From a plasmid: DNA of 64,000 nt. The stretch lies in the sequence record NZ_LR134445.1, one strand, 5' to 3'. The position numbers and the translations under genes are program-made. Shown in pieces: positions 5,023-64,000 of the stretch (positions are counted from its first letter, which is position 1; the number at the start of each line of letters is the position of its first letter). The notes beneath the pieces are model-generated. The model did not search any database, was not told the DNA's origin, and saw nothing but the letters and a program-made list of their open reading frames with translations.

Positions 5023-5048
5023 GAGGTTCTCCTTGGTGGTTCGAGGCG

Positions 5049-7730: not shown

Positions 7731-7837
7731 GGGTTCGGTGGCCTCGCTCCCACTCCTGGTGCGGATGATCGGTCAGGGGCGCCGACGGTACCTGCCTCCG
7801 CCGAGGGTAGTCAGGCACCGCGGGCGCTCGAGGAGGT

Positions 7838-10711: not shown

Positions 10712-11752
10712 ATGAAGGCGCTCAAGCTGACCGGGCCCGGCCGGATCGAACTCCAGGACGTCCCGGTGCCCGACATCGGGCCCGACGAGGTGCTCATCAA
10801 GGTCGTCGGCGCCGGGCTGTGCCATTCGGACCTGCACATCCTCCACCAGGGCGAGGAGTGGCCGTTCTTCGGCACGACGATGGGCCACGAGACGGCGGGC
10901 CTCGTCGACGCGGTGGGCGCCGACGTCCGCGACCTCGCCGTCGGAGAGCCCGTCCTGGTGCGCGCGGTGTGGTCGTGCGGCGAGTGCCGGCCCTGCACGG
11001 TCGGGCGAGAGAACGCGTGCTCGGTCAACGGCAGCCGGAACAAGTTCCCCCTGACCCCGGGGATCGGGGCCGACGGCGGCATGGCCGACTACATCAAGGC
11101 CCGGCCGGAGCATATCGATCGGCTCGGGGCCGTCGACGTGGCGAGCGCCGCGCCGCTCGCGGACGCGGGACTGACTCCCATGCACGCGATCCGCAGCGTG
11201 CGCGATCGCCTCGACGACGGGGCGACCGTCGTGGTGATCGGCATCGGCGGGCTCGGACACATGGCCGTGCAGATCCTGCGTGCGACCACATCGGCCCGGA
11301 TCATCGCCGTGGATGTCGATGCCGCGCGCCTCGAGGCCGCGCTGCGCAACGGCGCCGACCGCGCGATCCTCTCCGGGCCGGAAGCCGCGTCGGAGATCCT
11401 CGCGGAGAGCGACGGCTACGGGGTCGACGCCGTCCTCGACTTCGTGGGCGCCCAGGCCACCGTCGAACTCGCGACCGGCGTGGTCGCTCCGGAGGGGGCG
11501 GTCCGCCTCGTCGGACTCGCCGGTGGTTCGTTCCCGTTCAACGCGAGCCTCGAGGGCGAGGTGCTGCCGTGGGGCGCCAACGTCCAGAGGTCGTACGGCG
11601 GAACGCCCGCCGATCAGGCCGAGGTGCTGGCACTGGTCGCGGACGGCCGGATCGCGGTGGACGTCGTGATGTATCCGCTCGCGGACGCGCAGCGCGCCTT
11701 CGACGACCTCGAGGCCGGGCGAATCACCGGGCGAGCGATTCTCGTTCCCTGA
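10712..11752 (+). CDS. Zn-dependent alcohol dehydrogenase (MDR family)
   Basis: GroES-like N-terminus with catalytic Zn ligands (GAGLCHSDLH) and structural Zn Cys cluster (CGECRPC). Rossmann VIGIGGLGHMAVQ. Confidence 0.9.
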   Translation: MKALKLTGPGRIELQDVPVPDIGPDEVLIKVVGAGLCHSDLHILHQGEEWPFFGTTMGHETAGLVDAVGADVRDLAVGEPVLVRAVWSCGECRPCTVGRENACSVNGSRNKFPLTPGIGADGGMADYIKARPEHIDRLGAVDVASAAPLADAGLTPMHAIRSVRDRLDDGATVVVIGIGGLGHMAVQILRATTSARIIAVDVDAARLEAALRNGADRAILSGPEAASEILAESDGYGVDAVLDFVGAQATVELATGVVAPEGAVRLVGLAGGSFPFNASLEGEVLPWGANVQRSYGGTPADQAEVLALVADGRIAVDVVMYPLADAQRAFDDLEAGRITGRAILVP

Positions 11753-11801
11753 CCCCCGGTGACCGTCTCGCGTTACCGTCGAGGGGACGACGGGAGCGGG
11801 C

Positions 11802-12179
11802 ATGGACGAGCGGGTGGAATCGACGCAGGCGGCGCGGCAGATGCTGGGCGAGCTGTGGGACGGCAACGGGCCGCTGCTGATCCACCAGAGCGGCGGCTGC
11901 TGCGACGGCTCGTCGCCCATGGTCTTCACCGTCGACGAGTTCCGCGTGGGCGACGCCAACGTGCGGCTCGGCACCGTCGAGCTCGGGGACGGGCGCGACG
12001 TGCCGATCTGGGTGTCGGACGGCGAGGCGCGGGTGTGGGAGAGTAGCGTCCTCGTGCTGGACCTCGAACCCGGCCGCGCCGCCGGCTTCTCGCTCGAGGG
12101 CGCCACGGGGAAGCGCTTCGTCTCGCGGGTCCGGATCACGGGCGCCGACGATGCCGCCTGCCCGGTCCCGCAGTCCTGA
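11802..12179 (+). CDS. DUF779 domain protein
   Basis: 125 aa, GGCCDGSSPM motif. From memory, this family is usually found beside alcohol/aldehyde dehydrogenases. Confidence 0.55.
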   Translation: MDERVESTQAARQMLGELWDGNGPLLIHQSGGCCDGSSPMVFTVDEFRVGDANVRLGTVELGDGRDVPIWVSDGEARVWESSVLVLDLEPGRAAGFSLEGATGKRFVSRVRITGADDAACPVPQS

Positions 12180-14941: not shown

Positions 14942-15196
14942 ATGAGAACGACCATCGACGGGGCGGGCCGGATCGTGGTGCCGAAGGCGATCCGGGACGC
15001 GATGGGGTTGAGCGCGGGGAGGGCAGTGGACGTGACGTTCGCAGACGGGCGCATCGAGATCGAGGTGGCACCTGTTGAGATCGACATCGTGCCGGGCCAC
15101 CCGTTTCCGAAGGCCGTACCGCGGGAGCCGATTCCGCCACTGACCGACGAGATGGTCCGTCGGACCCTCGAAGAGGTCCGGCAGTGGCCGCGCTAG
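14942..15196 (+). CDS. vapB: AbrB/MazE-type antitoxin (VapB-like)
   Basis: 84 aa, GRIVVPKAIRDAMGLSAGRAVDV swapped-hairpin motif. Overlaps the PIN gene. Confidence 0.75.
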   Translation: MRTTIDGAGRIVVPKAIRDAMGLSAGRAVDVTFADGRIEIEVAPVEIDIVPGHPFPKAVPREPIPPLTDEMVRRTLEEVRQWPR

Positions 15197-15588
15197 CGTG
15201 CGACACCAGCGTCCTGCTTCCGTCGTTGCTGTCCTGGCACCATGCGCACACCAGGTGCGCATTCGCGTTGGCGCAGCAGGAGTTCGCGGTGCCCGCGCAT
15301 GTGCTGATGGAGACCTTCAGCGTGCTCACCAGGCTCCCCGAGAATCGTCTCTCGCCGGTGCAGGCCGCCGCGCTCATCGCAGGCGTCGACGCACCCTTGA
15401 TCGATCTTCCCGCCGCTGAGCACCGACGGGTGGTGGAGGCCCTGGGGGCGCGCGGAATCGGCGGCGGCGCGACCTACGACGCGCTGGTGGGTGCAACCGC
15501 GGCGCACCACGGAATGACACTCCTGACCGCTGACCTGCGGGCGCCGCGCACCTACGAGGCGGTCGGGGCCACCTACCGGACGGTGTGA
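15184..15588 (+). CDS. vapC: PIN-domain ribonuclease toxin (VapC)
   Basis: GTG start overlapping antitoxin by 13 nt. Acidic residues LACDTSVLLP...ETFSVLTR...TYDALVGATAAHHGMTLLTAD. Confidence 0.8.
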   Translation: MAALACDTSVLLPSLLSWHHAHTRCAFALAQQEFAVPAHVLMETFSVLTRLPENRLSPVQAAALIAGVDAPLIDLPAAEHRRVVEALGARGIGGGATYDALVGATAAHHGMTLLTADLRAPRTYEAVGATYRTV

Positions 15589-23706: not shown

Positions 23707-24225
23707 ATGGCCGCAGAGACCTCACCGGAGCGTTACGACGACACCGACGGCTACGCCGTGGCCGTGATCCGCGGGGAGACCGCCTGGACGGTGCACCTGC
23801 TCGACCCCGGGGCCCTCGGCAGTATCGCCAAGGCCGAGCAGGAGCTCAAGGCGCTGCGCGCGACCGGCGCCGTGATCGGGCTGCTCAACGTGGACGACGA
23901 GTACTTCGTCATCGTGCGGCCCGGCCCGTCGGGCACGCGGCTGTTGCTCTCCGACGCGACCGCCGCCGTCTTCGACGAACTCGCCGTGCAGGCGCTGGAT
24001 CGGCTCGACGTCGACGTGCCGGACATCGACCCCGAGGAGATCGAGGACACCGACCCGTGGCCCGAGGGCGACCTCGGCATCCTCGGTGATCTCGGCCTCG
24101 GCGAGCAGGAGCTGAGCGTGCTGCTCGCCGACCCGGATCTCTACCCCGACGAGCAGCTCCAGGTGATCGCGGAGCGCCTCCGGTTCGACGCCGAGCTGGG
24201 CGTGATCCTCGACGCGCTGGGCTAG
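23707..24225 (+). CDS. tRNA adenosine deaminase-associated protein (Rv3753c-like), acidic C-terminus
   Basis: Internal ATG of ORF 23620..24225 (MAAETSPERYDDTDGYAVAV...). Lies immediately upstream of tadA. Confidence 0.55.
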   Translation: MAAETSPERYDDTDGYAVAVIRGETAWTVHLLDPGALGSIAKAEQELKALRATGAVIGLLNVDDEYFVIVRPGPSGTRLLLSDATAAVFDELAVQALDRLDVDVPDIDPEEIEDTDPWPEGDLGILGDLGLGEQELSVLLADPDLYPDEQLQVIAERLRFDAELGVILDALG

Positions 24226-24689
24226 TGGCGCTGCTGGACGCCGAGCGCACGGCGATGGGCTTCGCGCTCGAGGCCGCGCGGCTCGCGGGCCCCGACGACG
24301 TGCCGGTCGGTGCTGCGGTGATCGGGCCCGACGGTGCCGTGCTCGCGCTCGCCGGGAACCGTCGGGAGCAGCTCGGCGACCCGACCGCCCACGCCGAGAT
24401 CCTCGCGATCCGCGAGGCGGCCGCGACGTTCGGCGACGGCTGGCGGCTCGAGGGCTGCACCCTGGCCGTCACCCTGGAGCCCTGCGCCATGTGCGCCGGG
24501 GCGCTGGTCTCGGCCCGCATCGGCCACCTCGTCTTCGGCGCCTTCGAGCCCAAGACCGGCGCGGTCGGCTCGGTGTGGGACGTGGTCCGCGACCCCCGCG
24601 TCACCCACCGGGTCACCGTGCGCGGCGGCGTCCGGGAGGCCGAGTGTGCCGCGCTGCTGCACGACTTCTTCCGGCCGCACCGCTCCTGA
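24225..24689 (+). CDS. tadA: tRNA-specific adenosine-34 deaminase
   Basis: HAEILAIREAA and PCAMCAGAL zinc-binding motifs. GTG overlaps upstream stop by 1 nt. Confidence 0.9.
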   Translation: MALLDAERTAMGFALEAARLAGPDDVPVGAAVIGPDGAVLALAGNRREQLGDPTAHAEILAIREAAATFGDGWRLEGCTLAVTLEPCAMCAGALVSARIGHLVFGAFEPKTGAVGSVWDVVRDPRVTHRVTVRGGVREAECAALLHDFFRPHRS

Positions 24690-24735
24690 CCTGCCGATTT
24701 AACGCCTGAGTCGTCTTCCGGTAAAGTTTCGCGAC

Positions 24736-24823
24736 GGTGGCGTGTCCGAGCGGCCGAAGGTGCAGCACTCGAAATGCTGTGTGCGGTAACCCCGTACCGA
24801 GGGTTCAAATCCCTCCGCCACCG
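24736..24823 (+). tRNA. tRNA-Ser (anticodon CGA)
   Basis: Acceptor GGTGGCG/CGCCACC, anticodon stem CAGCA/TGCTG, loop CUCGAAA, long variable arm, T-loop GGTTCAAATCC. Confidence 0.85.
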
Positions 24824-25488
24824 CTGAGAGAGACCCTCTCCGACCCCGGTCGGAGGGGGTCTTTCCCGTTCCGGGCCCGGGTGCCCGGCGTGCGGCGCCG
24901 CGGGGTTCGCCGCAGCCACCACTCGCAGAAGCCGATCGCGATCAGCCAGCTCGGCCACGCGACGATCGCCGGCCCCCACGAGTCCATGAAGGACTCCGGC
25001 ACCCCGGCGGCGTCGAGGACGAGGAACGAGATCGGGCCCAGGATCCGGTTGATGATCACCGAGTACATGAGCGCCGCGCTGCGCAGCATCCAGCGACGGT
25101 GGGCCGCCACGTCGCCGCCGACGATCGCCCGCACACCGAGCGCCGTGAACAGCAGCATCAGCGAGCCCAGCGTCACGTTGGACGCGGCGTTGACCGGCCC
25201 GAACGGCGTCACCGTGCCGATCGCGATGGCCGCGAGCCCGACGGGCAGCGCGCACGCGACGTAGATCCGGCCCGCGATCCAGTGGTACTTCGCGAACCAG
25301 CGGCGGCCCAGCTGCACCAGCCCGGCGAGCATCGCGACGGAGCCGAGCAGGATGTGCCCGACGAGCAGCCCGTAGTACCAGTTCGGCTGGTCGTCGAGCG
25401 GCACCCGGCTGCCGCCCGTGAGGTATGGGGGAAGGGAGTAGGCGAGGAAGACGAGCACCAGCAGGGCGCCCACCAGCAGTTTCTTCAT
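24805..25488 (-). CDS. DUF2306-like membrane protein
   Basis: 227 aa with 5-6 hydrophobic helices. Its C-terminal 19 nt overlap the 3' end of the tRNA-Ser gene. Confidence 0.55.
   Translation of the reverse strand: MKKLLVGALLVLVFLAYSLPPYLTGGSRVPLDDQPNWYYGLLVGHILLGSVAMLAGLVQLGRRWFAKYHWIAGRIYVACALPVGLAAIAIGTVTPFGPVNAASNVTLGSLMLLFTALGVRAIVGGDVAAHRRWMLRSAALMYSVIINRILGPISFLVLDAAGVPESFMDSWGPAIVAWPSWLIAIGFCEWWLRRTPRRRTPGTRARNGKDPLRPGSERVSLSGGGGI
24831..24864. terminator. Rho-independent terminator after tRNA-Ser(CGA)
   Basis: AGACCCTCTCCGACC-CCGG-TCGGAGGGGGTCT followed by TTT. Confidence 0.55.
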
Positions 25489-25599
25489 GCGGGAAACGCT
25501 AGGGACGGAGCCCGCGGCGGAGGATCACCCGCGCGGGTGGACCTGCGTAGTCCGCACGGGTGAGGCACCATGATCCGGGGTTCTTTTCAGGAGGAAACG

Positions 25600-26436
25600 A
25601 TGAACGACGACGGTGCCTGGGGCGCGCCCGCCCTCGACCTGCCGCGGTACCTGGAGCGCGTCGGCCTGAGCGACCCGCCGACGCCCGACCTCACCGGCCT
25701 GTCCGCGCTGGTCCGGGCGCACGCGACCACCCTGCCGTGGGAGAACTTCGACGCCGTCCGGGGTGTCCCGGGCGAGCTCACCGTCGACGCCCTGCAGCGG
25801 CGGATGATCGACGGCCGCCGCGGCTACGGCTGTACGGGCCACGTCCCGCTGCTCGCCGCGGTCCTGCAGCGCACGGGCTTCCGGTTCGGCGCCGCGTCCG
25901 GGCGGGTTCTGGTCGACGGCCGCCCGTCGGCGAGCACGCACGCCCTGCTCGTCGTGGAGGTCGACGGTGCGCCGCACCTCGCGGAGGTCGGCTTCGGCGC
26001 CGTCCCGCTCGCGCCGCTCCGGCTGGAGAGCGGCCTGGAGCAGGACGCCGGCGGCTGGCGCTACCGGCTCACCGCCGAGACCGTCGGCTTCGGCGAGGAG
26101 TGGCGGCTCGACTTCCTCGACCCGAGCTCGGGGCAGTGGCGGCCCCAGTACCGGTTCGCGCTCACCGACCGCACGTGGTCCGACCTGCGGATGACGAACT
26201 TCTACGTGGCGACCTCGCCGCACTCGCCGTTCCGCGGGCGGCTCATGGCCGTGGTCAACCGGCCCGGTGAGCGGCGCGTCCTCACGCGCGACGCGGTGAT
26301 CACGACCCGCCCCGACGGGGGCAAGGAGTCCGTGCCGTACGCGGCGGCGGACCGTCGGGCGATCCTCGCCGAGACCTTCGCGATCGACCTGCCCGAGGGC
26401 GAGGCCGCCGCGCTCGCGGCCGTCAGTGGGAGCTGA
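25600..26436 (+). CDS. nat: Arylamine N-acetyltransferase
   Basis: GRRGYGCTGHVPLLAAVL contains the catalytic Cys. Strong AGGAGG RBS before ATG at 25600. Confidence 0.85.
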   Translation: MNDDGAWGAPALDLPRYLERVGLSDPPTPDLTGLSALVRAHATTLPWENFDAVRGVPGELTVDALQRRMIDGRRGYGCTGHVPLLAAVLQRTGFRFGAASGRVLVDGRPSASTHALLVVEVDGAPHLAEVGFGAVPLAPLRLESGLEQDAGGWRYRLTAETVGFGEEWRLDFLDPSSGQWRPQYRFALTDRTWSDLRMTNFYVATSPHSPFRGRLMAVVNRPGERRVLTRDAVITTRPDGGKESVPYAAADRRAILAETFAIDLPEGEAAALAAVSGS

Positions 26437-26818
26437 AGAAGCCGATCGCCTTGTCGCCGCTGTCGCAGCGCGCGAGCATGCCGGGGGTCTGCGGGAACGT
26501 GCAGTTCCAGCCCTCGACGGTGGCGGGCTTCGCCATCGCGATCTGCGGTCCGAAGGCGTTGGCGACGCGCATGGCCTCGGCGCAGTCGACCTTCGTGGTG
26601 CCCAGCGCGTGCACGTACAGGGCGCCGTCGGGGCCGCGGGTCTGCCCGCACATCTCGGCGCGGGTCTCGGCCACCGTCGTCGTGGCCGACGGTGCGCCGG
26701 ACGGCGCGGGGCTCGCGGCCGGGTCGGAGGAACTGCCGCAGCCCGCGAGGAGCAGGCCGCACACTGTTGCAGTTGCGACGGCTGTGACAGGCGTTGCGAA
26801 GTGCTGAAATGCGGTCAT
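26423..26818 (-). CDS. Lipoprotein (132 aa)
   Basis: Signal peptide plus lipobox LLAGC (MTAFQHFATPVTAVATATVCGLLLAGCGSS). Confidence 0.55.
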   Translation of the reverse strand: MTAFQHFATPVTAVATATVCGLLLAGCGSSSDPAASPAPSGAPSATTTVAETRAEMCGQTRGPDGALYVHALGTTKVDCAEAMRVANAFGPQIAMAKPATVEGWNCTFPQTPGMLARCDSGDKAIGFFSSH

Positions 26819-26961
26819 GCCCTGCACGCTACCCGCGAACTGGTGATGAGCCTCACAAAAGTGCCGGTCAGCGACATTATTGCGGGCGGCAACGATCGGT
26901 ACACTCGACAGCGACCCGTATCGCGCAGCCCGTCGCGCCTCGACGACCTGGAGTGACTCGC

Positions 26962-29900
26962 ATGGCACTGTTCCTGTACCGGCTGGGGAGGTTCGCCTAC
27001 CTCAACCGCTTCAAAGTCATCGTGGCGTGGCTGCTGATCTTCGCCGGCATGCTCACCGGCGGCGCGCTTCTCAAGGGCGCCACGGTCGACAACTTCTCCC
27101 TGCCGGGTCTTCCCTCGGCGAAGGCGACGGACATCGTCTCCGAGAACTTCGGCGACAGCGGCGGCGACCCGTTCACCACCGCCTCGGCGACCATCGTCTT
27201 CCACACCAAGGACGGCAAGCTCACCGATCCGGCGGCCGCGGCGGGCATCGACCGCACGATCGCCGACCTCAAGAACCTCACCAAGGACCAGGACGGCCGT
27301 CAGGTCTCCGTGGTCCAGGATCCGGAGCTCCTGCACAACCCGACGGGCAAGCTGGACACCGACGCGCTGACGCCGGAGCAGCGCTCGAAGCTCGAGGCGG
27401 TCGCGGCGCAGGGCAAGGACATCGCGTCGACCAAGACGCAGGCGCAGAAGGACGCCGACGCGGCGGCCACCTCGTCGGTGAGCCCCGACGGCAAGACCGC
27501 CAAGATCACGGTCGACTTCGTCGGCAAGGTCACGGAGCTGCCGGACACCCTGTCCGAGGACATCAAGAAGGCCCGCGAGGCCGGCGAGGCCGCGTCGAAC
27601 GGCACGCTGCAGGTCGAGGCCGACGGTTCCGCCGCCCGCGGTGCCGAGGACATGGGCATGACCAGCGAGATCATCGGCATGATCGTCGCGGCGATCGTCC
27701 TGATCATCACCTTCGCCTCGCTCGTCGCCTGGGGCCTGCCGCTGCTGAACGCGATCATCGCGGTCCCGGTGGCCATCGGCGGCGTCATGATCGCCTCGCA
27801 CTTCATCGAGCTCGGCACCTTCCCCACGGTCCTGACCTCGATGATCGGCCTGGCCGTCACCATCGACTACGCGCTGTTCATCGTGTCCCGGTACCGGCAC
27901 GAACTGCGGCGCCTCGGCGCCACCACCAAGGAGCAGCGGGCCGAGGCCGCGGGCATCGCCGTCGGCACCGCCGGCACCGCCGTGATCTTCGCCGGCCTGA
28001 CGGTGATCATCGCGCTCGCCGCGCTCGCCTTCATCGGCATGGACTTCCTCGGTCAGATGGGCGTCGCCGCCGCGTGGGGCGTGTTCATCGCCGTCATCGT
28101 GGCGCTGACGCTGCTCCCGGCCCTGCTGGGCCTGTTCGGCTCCAAGGTCTTCGCCGGCCGGGTCAAGGGCCTGCATCCGCAGGACACGGACCAGGGCGAG
28201 GGCCGCGTCGCCAACGGCCTGCGCTGGGCCAACCTGGTCAAGAAGGTTCCCGTCGTGACCCTCGTCGCGGGCGTCGCCATCCTCGGCATCCTCGCCATCC
28301 CGATGAAGGACATGAAGACCGCCCTGCCCGGCTCGGGCATGAGCGAGAAGAGCACGTCGGAGCGCCAGGCCTACGACCTCATCTCCGACGCCTGGGGCAA
28401 GGGCGCCAACGGCACCCTCCTCGTCGCGGTCGACGGTGCCGGGGCCCAGCCGAACCAGCGCCTGGGCGCCTACAAGCAGATCGTCGACCAGCTCAACACC
28501 AACCCCAACATCGCGCCGCTCATCGCGAACGCGCAGCTCGCCCAACTCGCGCAGGACAACAAGGCCGCCACCATCATGGTGACGCCCAAGTCCGGCCCGA
28601 ACGACGACGACACCAAGACGCTGGTCACCAAGCTCCGCACCATGACCAACGGTGACGCCGGCACGAAGGCGCGGCTCGGCGTGGACCTCGGCGTCGCGGG
28701 CAGCACGGCCATCGAGATGGACATCTCGGAGAAACTCGGCGACGCGCTGTGGATCTACCTCGGAATCGTCGTGGGTCTGGCGTTCCTGCTGCTGCTCGTC
28801 GCCTTCCGCTCGATCCTGGTGCCGCTCACCGCGGTTCTGGGCTTCCTGCTGTCCGTCGTCGCCACGTTCGGCGTCACCTCCGCGATCTTCACCGACGGTG
28901 CCCTCGGCCTCATCGACAACACGCAGCCGCTGGTCTCGTTCCTGCCGATCTTCCTGATCGGCATCGTCTTCGGCCTCGCGATGGACTACCAGGTCTTCCT
29001 CGTCTCCCGGATGCGCGAGGAGTTCGTGCACACCGGCGACGCCACACAGTCCGTGGTGACGGGCGTGCAGTACGGCGCCCGTGTGGTGACCGCCGCTGCG
29101 ATCATCATGATCTCGGTCTTCGCCTCGTTCATCCTCAACGAGCAGGTCTTCATCAAGGAGATCGGCTTCGGCCTCGCCGCGGCCGTGCTGCTCGACGCCT
29201 TCGTCGTGCGGATGGTCCTGATCCCGTCGGTGATGATGCTGCTCGGCAAGTGGGCGTGGTGGCTGCCGAAGTGGCTCGACAAGATCCTGCCGAACGTCGA
29301 CATCGAGGGCGAGGCGCTCGTCGCCCAGCTCGGCCGCGGCGACGCGAACGCCGATACCGCCGCGATCCCCGCGCCGATCACGGCCGAGATCCCGGTGCCC
29401 ACCGAGCAGCTCGTGGCCGCCGGTGCGACCGATGTCCACGCCCGCGGCAAGGCGCGCGTCGAGCACGCCGGCGTGAACGGCCACACCAACGGCACCACCA
29501 ACGGTGCCGCCCACGGTGCCGAGCTCCCGACGGCCGCCCCGACGGTGCCCGTGCCGCTGCCCCTCGGCAAGGACGACGAGCACGTCACGGAGCAGGCACC
29601 GGTGTACGCGGACACGGAGCAGGTCGCCACGGCGGAGGCGGACGCGGCGGAGGCCGGCGCACCGGACACCGCCGAGTACCCGGTCGCGCGTCCGGGCGTC
29701 CCGCGCCCCGACCAGACCGCGACGGGCCCGATCCGCCCGCGCGACCGGACCCGCGACGAGATCGCGCAGCTGCGCGAGCAGAACAAGGCGATCGCGGCGG
29801 AGCTCAGCGCGCTGCGCTCTGACTACCGGTCGATGGCCAGCCGCACGCGACTGCAGAGCGAGCACATCAGCGATCCCACGCGGTTCGAGATCGAGGGTCG

Positions 29901-31134
29901 CCTCGAGGGGCCCGACGGTCCGCTCGGCCGCGCCGGCCGGCTGCTCACGCCGCACGGCGAGATGCTCACCCCCGCGTTCATCCCCGTCGGCACCAAGGCG
30001 ACGGTGAAGACCGTACTGCCCGAGGCGGTCTCGGAGCTGGGCGCGCAGGCGGTGCTGGCGAACGCCTACCACCTGTACCTGCAGCCCGGACCGGAGATCG
30101 TGGAGCAGGCCGGCGGCCTCGGCGCGTTCATGAACTGGGACGGTCCCACCTTCACCGATTCCGGTGGCTTCCAGGTGATGTCGCTCGGGTCGGGGTTCAA
30201 GAAGGTCATCGACATGACCGGCGGCGAGGAACTGCAGGGCGACGACGCGATCGCCGAGGGCAAGGACCGTCTCTCCCGCGTCGACGACGACGGCGTGACC
30301 TTCCTCAGCCACCTCGACGGCACCGAGCACCGGTTCACTCCGGAGCGGTCGATGCAGATCCAGCACCAGCTCGGCGCCGACGTGATCTTCGCGTTCGACG
30401 AGCTGACCACCCTGCACAACACCCGCGCGTACCAGGTGGAGTCGCTGGAGCGGACCCGCCTGTGGGCGCGGCGCTGCCTCTCCGAGCACAACTGGCTCAC
30501 CGCGCAGCGGCACGATGCGATCTCGCTGTGGGGCGTCGTGCAGGGCGCGCAGTACGAGGACCTGCGCCGCAAGGCCGCCCGCGACCTGCGGGCGCTGAGC
30601 GAGGAGGACCGGTTCTCCGGCGGCCTCGGCTTCGGCGGCTACGGCATCGGCGGGGCGCTGGAGAAGGCGAACCTGTCGACCATCGTGCGCTGGGTGAACC
30701 AGGAGCTCGAGGAGGACAAGCCGAAGCACCTGCTGGGCATCTCCGAGCCGGACGACATCTTCGCCGCGGTGGAGCAGGGCATCGACACGTTCGACTGCGT
30801 CTCCCCGTCGCGGGTGGCCCGCAACGGCGCGATCTACTCGCTCGACGGCCGCTACAACGTGACCAATTCGCGGTTCAAGACGGACTTCCGCCCGCTGGAC
30901 CCGGACACGCAGAACTACACCTCGCAGTACACCCGCGCGTACATCCATCACCTGTTCAAGGCGAAGGAGGGCCTCGCGGCCACGCTGTGCACCATCCATA
31001 ACGAGCAGTTCGTCGTCTCCCTGGTCGCGAAGATCCGGCAGTCGATGATCGACGGGACGTACTGGGACTTCAAGGAGGAGTTCCTGGGGCGCTACTACAA
31101 GGGCACCCAGCAGCACCTCGCCAAGTCCGACTAG
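26962..31134 (+). CDS. MmpL-family RND transporter fused in-frame to a C-terminal TGT-like (queuine tRNA-ribosyltransferase fold) domain, ~1390 aa
   Basis: Single stop-free ORF (track 26794..31134). Residues 1-~780 have 12 TM helices and two periplasmic loops typical of MmpL. A GC3-biased Ala/Pro/Thr-rich linker with a heptad-like segment (DEIAQLREQNKAIAAELSALRSDY) follows. The last ~420 aa carry TGT motifs: TPAFIPVGT, ANAYHLYLQPG, TDSGGFQ, LGADVIFAFDE, WGVVQGAQYEDLR, GIDTFDCV, RAYIHHL. Confidence 0.8.
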   Translation: MALFLYRLGRFAYLNRFKVIVAWLLIFAGMLTGGALLKGATVDNFSLPGLPSAKATDIVSENFGDSGGDPFTTASATIVFHTKDGKLTDPAAAAGIDRTIADLKNLTKDQDGRQVSVVQDPELLHNPTGKLDTDALTPEQRSKLEAVAAQGKDIASTKTQAQKDADAAATSSVSPDGKTAKITVDFVGKVTELPDTLSEDIKKAREAGEAASNGTLQVEADGSAARGAEDMGMTSEIIGMIVAAIVLIITFASLVAWGLPLLNAIIAVPVAIGGVMIASHFIELGTFPTVLTSMIGLAVTIDYALFIVSRYRHELRRLGATTKEQRAEAAGIAVGTAGTAVIFAGLTVIIALAALAFIGMDFLGQMGVAAAWGVFIAVIVALTLLPALLGLFGSKVFAGRVKGLHPQDTDQGEGRVANGLRWANLVKKVPVVTLVAGVAILGILAIPMKDMKTALPGSGMSEKSTSERQAYDLISDAWGKGANGTLLVAVDGAGAQPNQRLGAYKQIVDQLNTNPNIAPLIANAQLAQLAQDNKAATIMVTPKSGPNDDDTKTLVTKLRTMTNGDAGTKARLGVDLGVAGSTAIEMDISEKLGDALWIYLGIVVGLAFLLLLVAFRSILVPLTAVLGFLLSVVATFGVTSAIFTDGALGLIDNTQPLVSFLPIFLIGIVFGLAMDYQVFLVSRMREEFVHTGDATQSVVTGVQYGARVVTAAAIIMISVFASFILNEQVFIKEIGFGLAAAVLLDAFVVRMVLIPSVMMLLGKWAWWLPKWLDKILPNVDIEGEALVAQLGRGDANADTAAIPAPITAEIPVPTEQLVAAGATDVHARGKARVEHAGVNGHTNGTTNGAAHGAELPTAAPTVPVPLPLGKDDEHVTEQAPVYADTEQVATAEADAAEAGAPDTAEYPVARPGVPRPDQTATGPIRPRDRTRDEIAQLREQNKAIAAELSALRSDYRSMASRTRLQSEHISDPTRFEIEGRLEGPDGPLGRAGRLLTPHGEMLTPAFIPVGTKATVKTVLPEAVSELGAQAVLANAYHLYLQPGPEIVEQAGGLGAFMNWDGPTFTDSGGFQVMSLGSGFKKVIDMTGGEELQGDDAIAEGKDRLSRVDDDGVTFLSHLDGTEHRFTPERSMQIQHQLGADVIFAFDELTTLHNTRAYQVESLERTRLWARRCLSEHNWLTAQRHDAISLWGVVQGAQYEDLRRKAARDLRALSEEDRFSGGLGFGGYGIGGALEKANLSTIVRWVNQELEEDKPKHLLGISEPDDIFAAVEQGIDTFDCVSPSRVARNGAIYSLDGRYNVTNSRFKTDFRPLDPDTQNYTSQYTRAYIHHLFKAKEGLAATLCTIHNEQFVVSLVAKIRQSMIDGTYWDFKEEFLGRYYKGTQQHLAKSD

Positions 31135-31168
31135 CGCGGCGGGGCGGGGCCGGCCGTAGGATTCGGAC

Positions 31169-32158
31169 ATGTCCCACGTGGTGGCGCTGCCCGTCTGCGA
31201 CGGGATGACGATGCTCGAGTACGGCACCGTGCTGGAGGCGCTCAGCTTCGAGTGGAACGACCTCCCCTCGCTCGGCTACGACGTGCGCGGCTGCGGGCCG
31301 GCCGACGGGGTGCGGACGCTCGGCGGCGCGGTGCTGCGGCCGGCGTACGGACTGGACGAGATCGCGGGCGCCGACACCGTCATCATCACGGCCGTGTCGG
31401 ACCCGCGGACCGATTCGAACCCGGAGTGGCACGAGCCGCTGCGCGCGGCTGCGGCGAACGGCGCGCGGATCGTCTCGATCTGCACGGGTGCCTTCGCGCT
31501 CGCGGCGGCCGGCCTGCTCGACGGCCGGCGGGCCACGACGCACTGGCGCCACGCGGGCCTCCTGCAGTTCCGCTTCCCGCGGGTGCACGTCACGCCCTCG
31601 GAGCTCTACATCCAGGACGGCCCGGTGCTCACCGGTGCGGGCTCCGCGGCGGGCCTGGACCTGTGCCTGCACCTGATCCGCTCCGATCACGGGGCCGGCA
31701 CCGCGAATGAGGTGGCCCGCCGCCTCGTCGTCGCGCCGCACCGCGACGGCGATCAGTCGCAGTTCGTCAACATCGACACCCTGCGGCCCGACATGGACAA
31801 GCGCTTCGCCGACTTCCTGCAGGGTCTCGCGCACGGCATCGGCGGCGTCAAGGGGCTCGACGACATGGCGGCCCGCGCGGGCGTCTCCCGCCGCACCCTG
31901 CACCGCCGGTTCCGGCAGTACACCGGCGTCGCACCGCTGGAATGGCTGATGCGGCAACGGGTCTACCGCGCCATGCGGTTGTTGGAGACGACGAACGACT
32001 CCGTCACGGCGATCACCGGCCGCGCGGGTTTCGACGCCGAGGAGACGCTGCGCTACCACTTCAAGCGGCAGACCGGCCTCGCTCCCACCGCCTACCGTGA
32101 GCGCTTCCGCGGCAGCGACGTGGGGCGCAGCTCCGCCCGGACGGTGGCCGGATCTTGA
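31169..32158 (+). CDS. GlxA-type AraC family regulator (DJ-1/PfpI domain + AraC HTH)
   Basis: N-terminal GATase1-like with conserved Cys (IVSICTGAFALAAAG). C-terminal AraC HTH (GVSRRTLHRRFRQYTGVAPLEWLMRQRV...). Confidence 0.85.
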   Translation: MSHVVALPVCDGMTMLEYGTVLEALSFEWNDLPSLGYDVRGCGPADGVRTLGGAVLRPAYGLDEIAGADTVIITAVSDPRTDSNPEWHEPLRAAAANGARIVSICTGAFALAAAGLLDGRRATTHWRHAGLLQFRFPRVHVTPSELYIQDGPVLTGAGSAAGLDLCLHLIRSDHGAGTANEVARRLVVAPHRDGDQSQFVNIDTLRPDMDKRFADFLQGLAHGIGGVKGLDDMAARAGVSRRTLHRRFRQYTGVAPLEWLMRQRVYRAMRLLETTNDSVTAITGRAGFDAEETLRYHFKRQTGLAPTAYRERFRGSDVGRSSARTVAGS

Positions 32159-32215
32159 GGAATTCCGGCACCGCACACCTGGGCGGCGCGGCGCGGCCCG
32201 GATAGCGTTTCGGAC

Positions 32216-32431
32216 ATGAGGATTCAGCAGATGAGGAAGGTCTTCGGCGGCACCCGGGCGGCCCCGACGACGAACCGGACCCTGGGATGGCTGCGGGAGT
32301 TCGCCTCCGGTGTCGCGGCGGGCAACCTCGTCCGGCACGGCGCCGGCGTGCCCGGCGCGCACGACTCGCGGATCTGCGAGCGGCCGCGGCTGGGCCCCGC
32401 TCCCGCTGGGCGGCACGCCTCAGAGCGGTAG
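32216..32431 (+). CDS. Small hypothetical ORF (71 aa), uncertain
   Basis: GC3-biased open frame in the convergent gap, overlaps gluQ 3' end by 12 nt. No homology recognised. Confidence 0.15.
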
Positions 32432-33277
32432 CGTCCAGGGCTCGCGCGGCAGCCGCGCGGGGTCGAAGTCGTCGAGCATCTCGCGCGGCGTGCGACCGCG
32501 CAGCCCCAGGCTCGCGGCCAACTCGGGGAGCACCACCGCCGGCCCGCCGCGCTCGGCGAGGGTGACGGCACCGTCGCGCTTCGCGAGCCGGACGCCGGTG
32601 GGCCCCAGCACCATCGGCACGTGGGCGTAGGTCGGAGGCGCCCCGCCGAGGAGGGTCGTCAGGTACGCCTGGCGGGGCGCGGAGGAGAGCAGGTCGTCGC
32701 CGCGCACCACCTGGTCGACACCCTGCGCGGCGTCGTCGACCACCACGGCCAGGTTGTAGGCGTACGTCCCGTCGCCCCGTCGCAGCACGACATCGTCCAC
32801 GGCACCGGTGTACTCGCCGTGCAGCAGATCCGTCACGGTGAACGACGGGACCGTCGCGCGCAGGCGCACCGCCGCCGGCCGCTCCCGCCGCCGGACCACC
32901 CGCTCGGCCTCCGTGAGGTCGCGGCAGGTGCCCGGGTACGCGCCCTCCGGCGCGTGCGGCGCCGACGGTGCGGCGAGGATCTCCCGCCGCGTGCAGTAGC
33001 ACTCGTAGACGTCGAGCCGCTCCAGCGCCGCCGCGTAGCGTGCGGTTCGCTCCGACTGCCGCACCGTCTCGCCGTCCCAGTCCAGGCCCAGCGCGGCGAG
33101 GTCGGCGAGCTGTCGCGCCTCGGCACCGTCGGCCGTGCGGCCGGTGTCCAGGTCCTCGACGCGCATCAGGAAGTCCCGCCCCGTCGAGCGGGCGAAGAGC
33201 CAGGCGAGCAGGGCTGTCCGCAGGTTGCCCACGTGCAGGTCGCCCGACGGGCTCGGCGCGTACCGTCCAGCTGTCAC
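32420..33277 (-). CDS. gluQ: Glutamyl-Q tRNA(Asp) synthetase (GluRS-like catalytic-domain paralogue)
   Basis: [19 protein letters not shown] (HIGH-type) motif, Zn-binding Cys cluster (YECYCTRRE...GTC), [14 protein letters not shown] (KMSKS-like), ~285 aa without an anticodon-binding domain. Confidence 0.85.
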
Positions 33278-33286
33278 CGCCCCAGC

Positions 33287-34258
33287 TTACGAGCGCGCGC
33301 GGGAGAGATTGTCGGCCCAGCGGGCCAGGTGGGCCGTCAGCTCCGCGGGCGCGACGACGGTGACCTCGGCGTCGAGGACGGCGATCGCCATCGCGGGCCA
33401 GTCCAGGGAATCGGCCTCCATCCGCACGACGGTGCCGTCCGGCACCTCCTCGAGGCGCGCGTACCGGCCGATGAGCGGGCGCACGTGCTCGACGGGCGCG
33501 GCCACGCGGAACTCGATCCGATGGGCGGGCGCGCGCTGGCCGACGGACGCGCGCACGTAGGCGGCGGCGTCCTCGGCGGGGAGGTCGCGCGGCCGGAACC
33601 GCACGCCCGTGCTCGACGGTCCGCTGATCCGGTCGAGCCGGAAGCTGCGCCAGTCGTGGCGGTACAGGTCGTAGGCGACGAGGTACCAGCGGCGCCCGAG
33701 CGGCACGAGCCGCATCGGCTCGGCCAGGCGGTCGGTGCGCGCCCCGTCGGCGGCCGTGTAGCCGAACTCGATCCGCTCTTCCGCCCGGCACGCCTCCGCG
33801 AGGCCGGTGAGGACCCGCGGGTCGACGGCGGGCCCGCCGGTCAGGACGGCTGGTTGGGTGACGGCGCCCAACGCCTCGACGCGCTTGCGCAGCCGCGGCG
33901 GCATCACCGCGGCCACCTTGCCCAGCGCGCGCACCGAGGTCTCGGCGATGCCCGCGATCCCGCCCTGCGCCGCGGTCTGCAGGCCGACGGCGATCGCCAC
34001 CGCCTCCTCGTCGTCGAGGACCAGCGGCGGTAGTGCGGCGCCGGCGGCCAGCTGATAGCCGCCGTCGACGCCGCGGGACGCGGAGACGGGGTAGCCGAGG
34101 TCGCGCAGGCGCTCGATGTCGCGCCGCAGGGTGCGCACCGACACCTCGAGCCGGTCGGCCAGCTCGGAGCCCGGCCAGTAGCGGTGGGTCTGCAGGAGGG
34201 ACAGCAGCCGCAGGGTTCGAGAGCTCGTGTTCGCCATGTTTTCCAGTGTGTTCTGCAT
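33287..34258 (-). CDS. WYL-domain transcriptional regulator (HTH + WYL, YafY-like)
   Basis: N-terminal HTH (RTLRLLSLLQTHRYWPGSELADRLEVSVRTLRRDIERL). WYL region (RRWYLVAYD). Confidence 0.75.
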   Translation of the reverse strand: MQNTLENMANTSSRTLRLLSLLQTHRYWPGSELADRLEVSVRTLRRDIERLRDLGYPVSASRGVDGGYQLAAGAALPPLVLDDEEAVAIAVGLQTAAQGGIAGIAETSVRALGKVAAVMPPRLRKRVEALGAVTQPAVLTGGPAVDPRVLTGLAEACRAEERIEFGYTAADGARTDRLAEPMRLVPLGRRWYLVAYDLYRHDWRSFRLDRISGPSSTGVRFRPRDLPAEDAAAYVRASVGQRAPAHRIEFRVAAPVEHVRPLIGRYARLEEVPDGTVVRMEADSLDWPAMAIAVLDAEVTVVAPAELTAHLARWADNLSRARS

Positions 34259-34300
34259 TAAGGACAGAAACTGACACTAATACCTCATAGCCTTCTTCAC

Positions 34301-34831
34301 ATGACCGAGACACAGACCATCTCCGCCGAACGCAACGACATCCTCAGCCTCCTCGCCGAGCGCCGCCACTTCTTGCGTTTCACCGCACAGGGCCTGACCG
34401 ACGAGCAGGCCAACACCCGCAGCACCGTCAGTGAGCTGACCGTGGGCGGCCTCATCAAGCACGTCACCGAGGTCGAGAAGGGATGGCAGGACTTCGCCGT
34501 CGGCAGGCCGCACGCCACCGCCGACATCGACTTCGACAACCCCACCCCCGAGCAGATCGCCGCCTTCCAGGACACCTTCCGGCTGGCGGAGGGCGAGACC
34601 CTGGAGGGCGTGCTCGCCGAGCACGAACGGGTCGCGGCCGCCACCGATGAGCTGGTGCGCACGCTCGACCTCGACGTCGCCTACGAGCTGCCGGAGGCGC
34701 CCTGGCAGCCGCCCGGCGTCTTCTGGACCGTCCGCCGCGTCTTCCTGCACATCGCAGGCGAGACGGCCCACCACTCCGGGCACGCCGACATCATCCGCGA
34801 GACCATCGACGGCCAGAAGAGCATGGGCTGA
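34301..34831 (+). CDS. DinB/DUF664 family (four-helix bundle, mycothiol-dependent enzyme-like) protein
   Basis: 176 aa, HxxxE-like metal site pattern, C-terminal HHSGHADIIRETIDG. Confidence 0.7.
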   Translation: MTETQTISAERNDILSLLAERRHFLRFTAQGLTDEQANTRSTVSELTVGGLIKHVTEVEKGWQDFAVGRPHATADIDFDNPTPEQIAAFQDTFRLAEGETLEGVLAEHERVAAATDELVRTLDLDVAYELPEAPWQPPGVFWTVRRVFLHIAGETAHHSGHADIIRETIDGQKSMG

Positions 34832-34912
34832 ACGACCCTCGGGAGCGGGGCCTCGCGGTGGCGGGGTCCCGCTTACGGCCTTTTGGTCGGTGTCCGCGCC
34901 TAGGATCGAGGC

Positions 34913-35941
34913 GTGGACCTCCCCGTGAACCCGCCGCTCGACCCGATGCTCGCCAAGGCCGCGAAAGCAGTGCCCGGCGAGGGCTACTCCCACGAGCCGA
35001 AGTGGGACGGCTTCCGCGCGCTGATCTTCCGCGACGGCGACGAGGTCTTCATCGGCTCCCGCAGCGGCAAGGACCTCGGCCGCTACTTCCCCGAGGTCGT
35101 CGCCGCGGCCCGGGCCGAGCTCCCCGAGCGCTGCGTGCTCGACGGGGAGATCGCCGTCGCCGTGCACCGCGAGGGCCGCAAGCGGCTCGACTGGGAATCG
35201 CTCTCCGCCCGCATCCACCCCGCCGAGTCGCGCATCACGAAGCTCTCGGAGGAGACCCCGGCGATCTTCATCGGCTTCGACGCGATCGCCATGGCCGACG
35301 TGGATCTCACCGGTAAGCCCTTCAGCGCGCGCCGTCAGGTGCTCGTCTCCGCCTACGCCGGCACCGGGACCTGCAAGATCAGCCGCGTCACCACCGATGC
35401 GGATGCCGCCGCCGATTGGTTCGAGCGGTTCGAGGGAGCCGGGCTCGACGGGGTGATCTCCAAGCGGGTCGACGGGCACTACCTGCCCGGCAAGCGGGAG
35501 ATGATCAAGGTCAAGCACGCCCGCACGGGCGAGGCCGTGGTCATCGGGTACCGCCCGCACAAGTCGCAGCCGAACGCCGTCGGCTCGGTGTTGCTCGGTC
35601 TCTACCAGGACGGGCAGCTGCTGCCGATCGGCGGCATCGGTGCCTTCACCGCCGCCAAGCGGGAGGAGTACCTGCAGCTCCTCGAGCCCATGCGTACCGC
35701 CGACTCCGTGCAGGGCGAGCCCAACCGCTGGGCCACCCCGGAGAAGACGGGGGAGTGGGTGCCCGTGCGCCCCGAGCTGGTCGTCGAGTTCGACTACGAC
35801 CAGATGGAGGGCATGCGCCTGCGGCACACCGCCAAGTTCAAGCGCTGGCGCCCCGACCGCGAACCGTCGAGCTGCGGCTACGACCAGCTCGAGGTCCCCG
35901 TCAACTACGACCTCGACGACGTCCTGCAGGAGGGGGAGTGA
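34913..35941 (+). CDS. ligC: ATP-dependent DNA ligase (LigC-type)
   Basis: Adenylation motif I EPKWDGFRA. N-terminus MDLPVNPPLDPMLAKA resembles my recollection of mycobacterial LigC. Motifs III-V present. Confidence 0.85.
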   Translation: MDLPVNPPLDPMLAKAAKAVPGEGYSHEPKWDGFRALIFRDGDEVFIGSRSGKDLGRYFPEVVAAARAELPERCVLDGEIAVAVHREGRKRLDWESLSARIHPAESRITKLSEETPAIFIGFDAIAMADVDLTGKPFSARRQVLVSAYAGTGTCKISRVTTDADAAADWFERFEGAGLDGVISKRVDGHYLPGKREMIKVKHARTGEAVVIGYRPHKSQPNAVGSVLLGLYQDGQLLPIGGIGAFTAAKREEYLQLLEPMRTADSVQGEPNRWATPEKTGEWVPVRPELVVEFDYDQMEGMRLRHTAKFKRWRPDREPSSCGYDQLEVPVNYDLDDVLQEGE

Positions 35942-37029
35942 TGGCCAAGGCCCCGGCAGCCGAGGTGATCGTCCCCGGGCCCGACGGTGACCGCCCCGTT
36001 CGGGTCTCGAGCCCCGACCGGATCATCTACCCCGCCACCGACCTCACGCCAGAGGTGTCCAAACTTCAGGTGGCGCAGTACTTCGCCGCCGTCGGCGAGC
36101 CGCTGCTCGCGGCCATCGGTGACCGCCCCACCGCGCTCGAACGCTGGCCCGGCGGAGTCCATCCCGGCGGCCGGCTCGCGCAGGGCCCGCAGGACAAGGA
36201 CGCCGACGGCTTCTACCAGAAGCGGATGATGAAGGGCGCGCCCGAGTACGCGCAGACGGTGCGCATCGCCTTCCCGTCCGGCCGCCCCGCCGACGAGCTG
36301 TGCCCCTCCGAGATCGCCATCCCGGTGTGGTGTGCGCAGATGGGCACCATCACCTTCCATCCGTGGCCGGTGCGCAGCGCCGATGTCGACCATCCCGACG
36401 AGCTGCGGATCGATCTCGATCCCCAGCCGGGCACCGACTTCCACGACGCGGTCCGCGTCGCGGGCATCGCCCGTGAGCTGGCGGACGACCTCGGCCTGCG
36501 GGCGTACTGCAAGACCTCCGGCAACCGTGGCGTGCACGTCTTCATCCGCATCGCGCCGCGCTGGGACTTCGTGGACGTGAGGCACGCCGCGATCGCGTTC
36601 GGCCGCGAGCTGGAGAAGCGCGACAGCGGCGTCACCACCGCGTGGTGGAAGGAGGAGCGGGGGGAGCGGATCTTCGTGGACTACAACCAGAACAGCCGCG
36701 ACCGCACCATCGCCTCCGCATGGTCGCTGCGCGCCGTGCAGGGCGCCACCGTCTCCACCCCGCTCACCTGGGATCAGCTGGCGGAGCTGAAGGACCCGCA
36801 CGAGCTCAACCTGTTCACCGTGCCCGAGCGCCTCGCCGACGGGAATCCGTGGGCCGACATCGACGAGGTCGCGCACGACCTCACACCCCTGTTGGATCTG
36901 TGGGAGCAACACCCCGTCGAGCTGAACTACCCGCCCGACTACCCGAAGATGCCCGGCGAGCCTCCGCGCGTGCAGCCCAGCAAGAAGGTCGCCGAGCACT
37001 GGGACGCCGAGGGCAACCGCATCGAGTAG
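35941..37029 (+). CDS. LigD-type primase-polymerase domain protein (PrimPolC/Prim-PolC)
   Basis: KTSGNRGVHVF signature of AEP/LigD-POL. Start overlaps ligC stop by 1 nt. Confidence 0.85.
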   Translation: MAKAPAAEVIVPGPDGDRPVRVSSPDRIIYPATDLTPEVSKLQVAQYFAAVGEPLLAAIGDRPTALERWPGGVHPGGRLAQGPQDKDADGFYQKRMMKGAPEYAQTVRIAFPSGRPADELCPSEIAIPVWCAQMGTITFHPWPVRSADVDHPDELRIDLDPQPGTDFHDAVRVAGIARELADDLGLRAYCKTSGNRGVHVFIRIAPRWDFVDVRHAAIAFGRELEKRDSGVTTAWWKEERGERIFVDYNQNSRDRTIASAWSLRAVQGATVSTPLTWDQLAELKDPHELNLFTVPERLADGNPWADIDEVAHDLTPLLDLWEQHPVELNYPPDYPKMPGEPPRVQPSKKVAEHWDAEGNRIE

Positions 37030-63962: not shown

Positions 63963-64000
63963 GCGCTCCACTCTCCAGCGCCGAGACCGGAAGGACAATC

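Follow-up and report, generated by a model that had tools for sequence, protein, structure and literature searches.

We analyzed a 64,000-nt stretch of record NZ_LR134445.1 from Tsukamurella tyrosinosolvens (hereafter the window), which contains a gene fusing an MmpL-type membrane protein to a tRNA-guanine transglycosylase (TGT) and, close by, gluQ, the gene for a predicted glutamyl-Q tRNA(Asp) synthetase (GluQRS). An original prediction for this locus had tied the TGT domain to queuosine (Q) and had described these genes, together with a regulator located between them, as a small island. The features concerned are as follows:

26962-31134, + strand: MmpL-TGT fusion open reading frame (ORF), 1390 aa, Pfam MMPL and TGT
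26962-29331, + strand: MmpL part of the fusion, aa 1-790
29332-29826, + strand: linker of the fusion, aa 791-955
29827-31134, + strand: TGT domain of the fusion, aa 956-1390, of the "GGALE"-pocket type, zinc cysteines lost
31169-32158, + strand: GlxA/FtrA-like regulator, 329 aa, DJ-1_PfpI and HTH_18/HTH_AraC
32420-33277, - strand: gluQ, 285 aa, GTG start, identified by GluQRS models

The TGT part scored 377.1 bits on the Tgt equivalog model TIGR00430 (cut-off, 306.75), and it matched Pfam TGT and the Zymomonas mobilis enzyme with E values of 2.4e-113 and 6e-89, respectively. Residues were numbered after Z. mobilis, and 72 actinobacterial TGTs were aligned. D102, D156, Q203, the nucleophile D280, and H349 were invariant in the window TGT and in all 72 sequences. 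In TGTs, D280 is the nucleophile, while D102 and D156 act as bases, D156 being the base-recognizing residue. The ratio of nonsynonymous to synonymous substitutions (dN/dS; all values given here are from the comparison with Tsukamurella conjunctivitidis) was 0.059, indicating strong purifying selection between the two species. An AlphaFold model of the domain had a mean pLDDT of 80.9, and Foldseek superimposed it on Z. mobilis TGT with TM scores of 0.88 to 0.91 and root mean square deviations of 2.3 to 2.7 Å for most top matches (up to 4.3 Å). Moreover, the domain is the orthologue of stand-alone Tgt proteins (about 410 to 430 aa, 65 to 78% identity) encoded in the same synteny in the related genera Gordonia, Williamsia, Rhodococcus, Nocardia, and Mycobacterium. 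Taken together, the kept catalytic residues, the low dN/dS, and the fold match argue that the domain is very probably an active TGT.

With the Z. mobilis and Escherichia coli enzymes the domain thus shares the fold (TM about 0.9), the five residues named above, and assignment to TIGR00430. It differs from them in its pocket, in Leu158, in an insertion of 25 aa, in the loss of the zinc ligands, and in being joined C-terminally to a 12-helix MmpL protein by a linker of ~165 aa. The pocket reads "GGALEK" instead of Z. mobilis "GGLAVGEGQ" and is 3 residues shorter in all 72 aligned TGTs; the preQ1 pocket "GGLAVGE" with C158 and V233 is not found in the window TGT. Position 158 is Leu in all but two of the 72, the exceptions being Nakamurella and a metagenome-assembled genome (MAG) of the Propionibacteriaceae, which keep Cys. 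All 72 also carry the insertion of ~25 aa after "GFKKV", which is a low-confidence segment in the model of the window TGT. The "GGALE" pocket had already been noted and modelled for Nakamurella multipartita C8X7A7 (PMC10723273), whose pocket motif is identical to that of the window TGT.

The Tsukamurella, Gordonia, and Williamsia subgroup differs from the rest of the GGALE group by additionally lacking the zinc cysteines. In the window TGT, C318, C320, and C323 are replaced by Thr, Asn, and a deletion/S (30907-30924), with H349 kept. The CxCxxC motif gave way to T-x-N and a one-residue deletion in all 12 sequences from the three genera (among them loci L004-L011, L013, and L015) and was kept in every other actinobacterial TGT examined. 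This zinc-less clade has retained gluQ, and its enzyme is strongly constrained. To our knowledge, zinc is structural in the TGTs studied so far. The loss of the site is a side result of this analysis that seems to be new.

GluQ passed two GluQRS equivalog models, NF004315 (311.4 bits; cut-off, 250) and TIGR03838 (299.0 bits; cut-off, 276.7), and stayed below the cut-off of the glutamyl-tRNA synthetase (GluRS) model TIGR00464 (208 vs 290 bits). Pfam detected tRNA-synt_1c alone (residues 5-240) and no anticodon-binding domain. The best solved relative was E. coli YadB/GluQRS (1NZJ, E value 9e-43). Like this protein (1NZJ, 4A91), GluQ is a truncated GluRS catalytic domain without the anticodon-binding domain, and its HIGH-like and "LAKRD" segments (E. 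coli "LSKQN") align with those of YadB. The zinc positions Cys-x-Cys...Tyr...Cys are matched as well ("yeCyCtr...gaYpgtCr" vs "yyCtCtr...giYdghCr" in 1NZJ). In contrast to YadB, with which it shares ~40% identity, GluQ has an 8-residue insertion in the zinc loop. GluQRS esterifies glutamate to the cyclopentenediol of Q on tRNA-Asp (PMC3542578), and we regard GluQ as a predicted glutamyl-Q tRNA(Asp) synthetase. Its gene (dN/dS, 0.161) converges with the fusion gene at a stop-to-stop distance of 1285 nt, in agreement with the 1.3 kb given in the original prediction. Whereas gammaproteobacterial gluQ is linked to dksA (PMC3542578), gluQ in the window lies near tgt and directly after a gene for a WYL regulator (33287-34258), which stops 9 nt before the gluQ start. 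Since the two are so close, gluQ may ride on the WYL transcript in T. tyrosinosolvens, and a common transcript is probable for this species only. By tblastn, the WYL gene was found beside gluQ only in the Tsukamurella loci L001-L004; it is absent in T. soli.

To place the pair in a wider context, one genome per species was scanned for TGT-domain relatives, and the best 80 loci were kept with 10-kb flanks; neighbors were located by tblastn with window proteins, and flanking ORFs were also clustered. In 40 of 51 Mycobacteriales loci, gluQ was located 89 to 7186 nt downstream of tgt on the opposite strand (Tsukamurella, 1/1; Williamsia, 2/2; Gordonia, 4/7; Rhodococcus, 6/9; Rhodococcoides, 2/3; Nocardia, 9/9; Mycobacterium, 7/10; Mycolicibacterium, 8/8; unclassified Mycobacteriales MAGs, 1/2). 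Such recurrence argues that the pairing is not due to chance, nor is it specific to the strain. Outside the order, gluQ was near tgt in 6 of 29 loci, namely, five MAGs and Nakamurella. In two Rhodococcus loci, gluQ is split into two frames (L042, 14628-15502; L053, 14839-15721), so that the gene may be a frameshifted pseudogene, unless the sequence is in error; the accompanying tgt and yhhQ genes look intact.

Clustering of the flanks further revealed a 250-aa membrane protein encoded directly after tgt on the opposite strand, which we take to be a putative YhhQ/QPTR queuosine-precursor transporter, judging by its sequence. By tblastn, 35 of the 80 loci carried yhhQ in the 10-kb flanks of tgt; it was usually convergent and 24 to 120 nt away, with gaps of 0 to 11 nt in two Brevibacterium loci. 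Loci bearing it include all those of Nocardia, Brevibacterium, and Arthrobacter, most of those of Rhodococcus, and Nanopelagicales; it directly follows tgt in Nocardia, in most Rhodococcus loci, and in one of three Rhodococcoides loci, and lies 4 to 9 kb downstream in the other two Rhodococcoides loci. Loci with the tail-to-tail arrangement are L016, L024, L025, L031, L034, L035, L040, L042, L045, L047, L052, L053, L057-L059, L061, L065, L067, L068, L071, and L077-L079, with yhhQ at ~11200-12100. The tblastn search of the 80 loci located no yhhQ in the 10-kb flanks of tgt in Tsukamurella, Williamsia, Gordonia, or Mycobacterium, and the window locus is not a Q-salvage cluster of the kind defined by an adjacent QPTR (PF02592) gene. 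From the yhhQ and gluQ findings, we therefore infer an older layout, in which tgt was followed by yhhQ and gluQ on the other strand, forming an old Q-salvage cluster within a core synteny block that extends from tadA to ligC. Because tadA upstream and ligC downstream of tgt/gluQ are likewise conserved across the order, part of the tgt-gluQ signal is plain synteny.

The fusion ORF itself is one uninterrupted frame of 1390 aa (Pfam MMPL E value, 1.8e-87). Full-length MmpL-TGT fusions were found in Tsukamurella only (nine 90% clusters, 67 to 100% identity), and MmpL orthologues of ~780 aa without a TGT occur in Gordonia, Williamsia, and Rhodococcus (46 to 50% identity). In Williamsia, mmpL is a separate gene directly upstream of tgt; it lies 3.7 to 7 kb upstream in Rhodococcus, whereas in Nocardia it is encoded on the other strand, ~5 kb upstream, and Gordonia and Mycobacterium have no mmpL orthologue close to tgt. 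In the linker, a variable stretch rich in Ala, Pro, and Thr precedes a conserved predicted helix (~29743-29829, DEIAQLREQNKAIAAELSALRSDYRSM), which occupies residues 3-37 of the structure model. According to the alignment, linker length varies in frame among Tsukamurella species; in the comparison with T. conjunctivitidis, a net indel of 30 nt leaves the frame intact, and dN/dS is 0.314 for the linker and 0.147 for the MmpL part.

Public annotation is divided: some entries give the 1390-aa protein, and NCBI gives a Tgt of 433 to 436 aa with the MmpL part uncalled or "partial." The stand-alone Tgt entries of PGAP raised the question of whether the fusion is an artefact, which we rejected, as the ORF is a single frame and the MmpL part of locus L002 (12144-16316) shows 100% identity. 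Splitting the ORF would seem to be a convention of annotation. In T. soli (L088, 4020-8281), a single frame (4760-8281) likewise covers the C-terminal MmpL part, linker, and TGT, and another frame (4020-5117) encodes the N-terminal MmpL part; this break is a frameshift or an assembly error.

The fusion is not new. Yuan et al. 2024 cataloged QPTR-TGT, MFS-TGT (Tpau_0550), and MMPL-TGT (Tpau_4044) fusions (PMC11130926), and their Table S1 contains the T. tyrosinosolvens MMPL+TGT protein A0A1H5C6U4_TSUTY (SAMN04489793_5322; 1390 aa). The window ORF equals A0A1H5C6U4 in length and architecture and is on this ground taken to be one of the MMPL-TGT proteins listed. Unlike the present analysis, PMC11130926 does not mention gluQ, and we found no mention in it of zinc loss or of the order-wide tgt-yhhQ-gluQ layout. 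The same Table S1 gives a second fusion for T. tyrosinosolvens, an EmrB/QacA-type MFS-TGT of 1021 aa (SAMN04489793_0789), which explains the two tgt genes counted for the genus in PMC10570037. No MFS-TGT was among the best 150 matches of a HMMER search with the TGT domain; the long matches among these combined TGT with a methyltransferase, with DUF559, or with no second domain detected. A canonical tgt elsewhere in the genome, with gluQ beside the fusion in this strain only, had been named by the original prediction as speaking against a queuosine link. Half of this applies: a second TGT has been published, but the gluQ linkage is order-wide.

The remaining genes around the fusion and gluQ are the following:

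24225-24689, + strand: tadA, from Pfam/curated models
24805-25488, - strand: DUF2306 membrane protein
25570-26436, + strand: arylamine N-acetyltransferase
26423-26818, - strand: small putative lipoprotein gene with the lipobox "LLLAGCGSS," divergent from mmpL-tgt
32216-32431, + strand: 71-codon ORF, predicted by some gene finders, probably not a genuine gene
33287-34258, - strand: HTH-WYL-WCX (YafY/PafBC-like) regulator, Pfam HTH_11, WYL, and WCX
34301-34831, + strand: mycothiol-S-transferase (MST)/DinB protein
downstream of the MST/DinB gene, to 37029: LigC and LigD-type primase-polymerase

Farther out in the window are tyrA, the signal recognition particle (SRP) RNA, tRNA-Ser genes, dnaX-ybaB-recR, and ogt. 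By exact protein matching, the window belongs to contig FNSA01000003.1 of assembly GCA_900104775.1. G+C content is actinobacterial and flat at 0.70 to 0.76, and no mobility genes were present among the annotated window genes. With this G+C profile, the housekeeping genes and tRNAs, and the order-wide tadA...tgt...gluQ...ligC block, the window is core chromosome and not a genomic island, so that the notion of a small island has to be given up. A tRNA-Ser(CGA) directly follows tadA (24225-24824), which codes for the tRNA A34 deaminase; since tadA is a conserved member of the synteny block, located upstream of tgt and gluQ, a 9-kb interval contains three genes for tRNA modification at the wobble position. 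In Williamsia and Gordonia, relatives of the lipoprotein gene (36 to 40% identity) immediately precede mmpL or tgt. The WYL-WCX regulator, MST/DinB, LigC, and LigD-type primase-polymerase genes (33287-37029) form a DNA-damage-flavored cluster. Elsewhere, a VapBC-type pair (MazE-like antitoxin and PIN-domain toxin) occupies 14942-15588, and an EamA-family transporter gene (62967-63998, - strand) lies 30 kb from tgt; EamA is among the untested candidate families of Q-precursor transporters (PMC11130926).

Consistent with the original prediction, the genes called in the 64 kb had no Pfam matches to Que families (queCDEF etc.) or to QPTR, and tblastn with an actinobacterial YhhQ gave no match in the window. 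When the entire 64 kb were scanned for riboswitches and other RNA elements at the Rfam gathering thresholds, tRNAs and SRP RNA were the only matches, and the spacer 32150-32430 folds no better than shuffled sequences (z = +0.83). A promoter and terminator scan of 26300-34500 found no sigma-70-like site, and terminator-like sites solely inside the fusion ORF and on the wrong strand; such a scan is uninformative for an actinomycete of 70% G+C. Two further ORFs were considered and rejected. The 71-codon ORF, as a possible fourth component, has no Pfam match, and a net indel of 5 nt relative to T. conjunctivitidis breaks its frame. An antisense ORF of 1470 codons (26815-31227, - strand) failed the codon-position G+C/overlap filter that the sense ORF passed and is read as a by-product of high G+C, not as a gene.

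These results suggest that the region is probably the form taken in Tsukamurella by a queuosine-salvage neighborhood that is old in the Mycobacteriales and lies in the core chromosome. The predicted tie between the TGT domain and queuosine was borne out by the Tgt equivalog score, catalytic residues, fold, dN/dS, syntenic orthology, and order-wide gluQ; of the overall interpretation offered originally, this link stands, and the island and the membership of the regulator do not. For T. paurometabola, a COG-based survey lists no queD/E/C/F, queA, or queG/H genes, two tgt genes, and the label "q salvage" (PMC10570037 Data S4), and most Mycobacteriales keep only tgt (PMC10723273). A genome context without queCDEF, queA, and queG/H, as the published table suggests for the genus, would be shared with Chlamydia trachomatis-type queuine TGTs. 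The Tsukamurella mmpL gene has lost its stop codon and reads through the ~165-aa linker into tgt. As a probable course of events, the cell would take up free queuine made by other organisms, and the TGT domain would insert this base directly in place of G34 in tRNA-Asp, -Asn, -His, and -Tyr; GluQRS would then activate glutamate and esterify it to the cyclopentenediol of Q34 on tRNA-Asp. Since GluQRS needs the Q diol, the retention of gluQ beside tgt argues for full Q and not preQ1, i.e., tgt-only Mycobacteriales would use salvaged queuine to form full Q rather than preQ1-tRNA.

Several observations weigh against this reading. A GG[LS][AS]G pocket has been reported as typical of queuine-inserting TGTs, and the window pocket is GGALE; in this the window TGT departs from the Chlamydia type, and queuine use by the GGALE group is putative. 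Because "GGALEK" differs from the queuine-type motif, the choice of queuine, preQ1, or another substrate is deduced indirectly. A tgt-only genome can still prefer preQ1, as in Bartonella, so that having tgt alone is no guarantee of queuine use. In the literature, we found no report of Q or gluQ in tRNA of Tsukamurella or other Mycobacteriales, and nothing usable on gluQ in tgt-less Streptomyces. No queuine transporter was identified in the window, and the zinc cysteines of the TGT are lost. Finally, tgt and gluQ are convergent and cannot share a transcript; together with the variable genes between them, this means that their proximity may be inherited synteny and not selected clustering.

This last point leads to the alternative that survives best, namely, that the proximity has no functional meaning: tgt and gluQ would have been located between tadA and ligC in the ancestor of the Mycobacteriales and would simply never have been separated, being transcribed independently and without coregulation. 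We consider this possible, though clearly less probable than a salvage neighborhood. It agrees with the equal conservation of non-Q genes on either side (tadA upstream, ligC and ligD-PrimPol downstream), with the convergent orientation, with the wide range of tgt-gluQ spacing and the differing genes between, and with the 11 of 51 Mycobacteriales loci that have no gluQ within 10 kb. However, despite many insertions and rearrangements, tgt and gluQ have stayed within 7 kb of each other in six named genera, and yhhQ, which also serves Q salvage, adjoins tgt in many of the same loci, exceeding what drift would predict. Moreover, tgt and gluQ belong to one pathway by family assignment regardless of their linkage.

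The salvage reading leaves room for a role of the MmpL part as a transporter of queuine or a Q precursor, the fusion channeling the imported base to tRNA at the membrane in place of QPTR/YhhQ. The idea is already in print, as MMPL was high-scoring among transporter families clustered with tgt, and the MMPL-TGT and MFS-TGT proteins of Tsukamurella were noted (PMC11130926). It fits the lack of a yhhQ gene in the window and in the 10-kb flanks of tgt in Tsukamurella, Williamsia, and Gordonia, the mmpL orthologues directly upstream of tgt in Williamsia and 3.7 to 7 kb away in Rhodococcus and Nocardia, and the maintenance of the fused frame throughout Tsukamurella. MmpL/RND proteins, however, are known as proton-driven exporters, and in Gordonia and Mycobacterium, mmpL and tgt are not neighbors. 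The linker is low in complexity and fast-evolving, as simple loss of a stop codon predicts, and the frame would also be maintained if the TGT had lost its own translation start. In E. coli, the MMPL protein of Corynebacterium propinquum was negative for preQ0/preQ1, with a caveat concerning expression (PMC11130926); we found no report of a queuine test of this protein. On balance, we regard transport by MmpL as unlikely.

The regulator begins 34 nt after the fusion stop (31134) on the same strand, no terminator-like site intervenes, and the two genes are probably cotranscribed. As in GlxA/FtrA AraC regulators, an N-terminal DJ-1/PfpI domain precedes an AraC helix-turn-helix, which agrees with the domains predicted for it, and NCBI names its orthologues "GlxA family transcriptional regulator." Its 315 bits on the FtrA model NF006902 are below the equivalog cut-off of 425, so that it is termed GlxA/FtrA-like and not FtrA; a conserved link to Q genes is absent. 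One could imagine that its DJ-1/PfpI domain senses a Q-related or stress metabolite and that it controls mmpL-tgt and gluQ as one regulated unit. Its position after the fusion, a dN/dS of 0.062, and its presence beside tgt in most Tsukamurella species (clusters at 72 to 98% identity) would suit such a role. In T. soli, however, an O-methyltransferase gene (8286-8873 in L088) lies between tgt and gluQ, and there are no regulator, WYL, or MST genes; by tblastn, no other genus examined has the regulator between tgt and gluQ. Its closest relatives outside the genus, in Kocuria (69% identity), Leucobacter (60%), Mycolicibacterium (60%), and Rhodococcus (55 to 56%), are found next to a Rieske oxygenase and an MFS gene (in a setting resembling an integrative and conjugative element), among unrelated genes, or beside the pentose-phosphate operon, i.e., in contexts unrelated to Q, and this patchy taxonomy suggests lateral acquisition. 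We therefore rejected the regulator as a conserved Q partner, and its control of the two genes as a unit is quite improbable. The GlxA/FtrA-like and WYL regulators, like the 71-codon ORF, are insertions specific to the lineage, and we found nothing that ties them to Q metabolism.

Least probable of all is that the zinc-less TGT no longer modifies tRNA position 34 with a Q precursor but serves as a regulatory or sensor appendage of MmpL or acts on another base or nucleic acid, and that gluQ has another substrate or is a relic, because the lost zinc cysteines with one residue deleted, the change of C158 to Leu, the shortened pocket, the low-confidence insertion, and a second TGT paralogue that could carry the tRNA function are set against the same pocket and insertion in all 72 TGTs (including stand-alone, zinc-site-bearing ones beside yhhQ), invariant D280, D102, and D156, the low dN/dS, intact gluQ in the zinc-less clade, and a score above the curated Tgt cut-off.

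For the most part, the finding of a queuosine-salvage neighborhood confirms annotation, as two known Q-pathway genes are neighbors and the fusion was already published; the comparative detail is modestly new. A bolder version, which we put forward as a doubtful speculation, is that Tsukamurella performs membrane-anchored, zinc-independent queuine salvage, in which MmpL, as importer or scaffold, would feed its own TGT, Q34 would be formed at the membrane, and GluQRS would complete the modification. If true, this would place an RND-family protein in nucleobase uptake and tether a bacterial TGT to the membrane, and the second, MFS-TGT fusion would point to a genus-wide preference for transporter-TGT coupling. 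The zinc-less but constrained TGT clade is a natural test of zinc dispensability in the TGT family. For the order as a whole, gluQ beside tgt, joined by QPTR in several genera, argues for full queuosine in bacteria that keep tgt as their only gene of the pathway up to Q.

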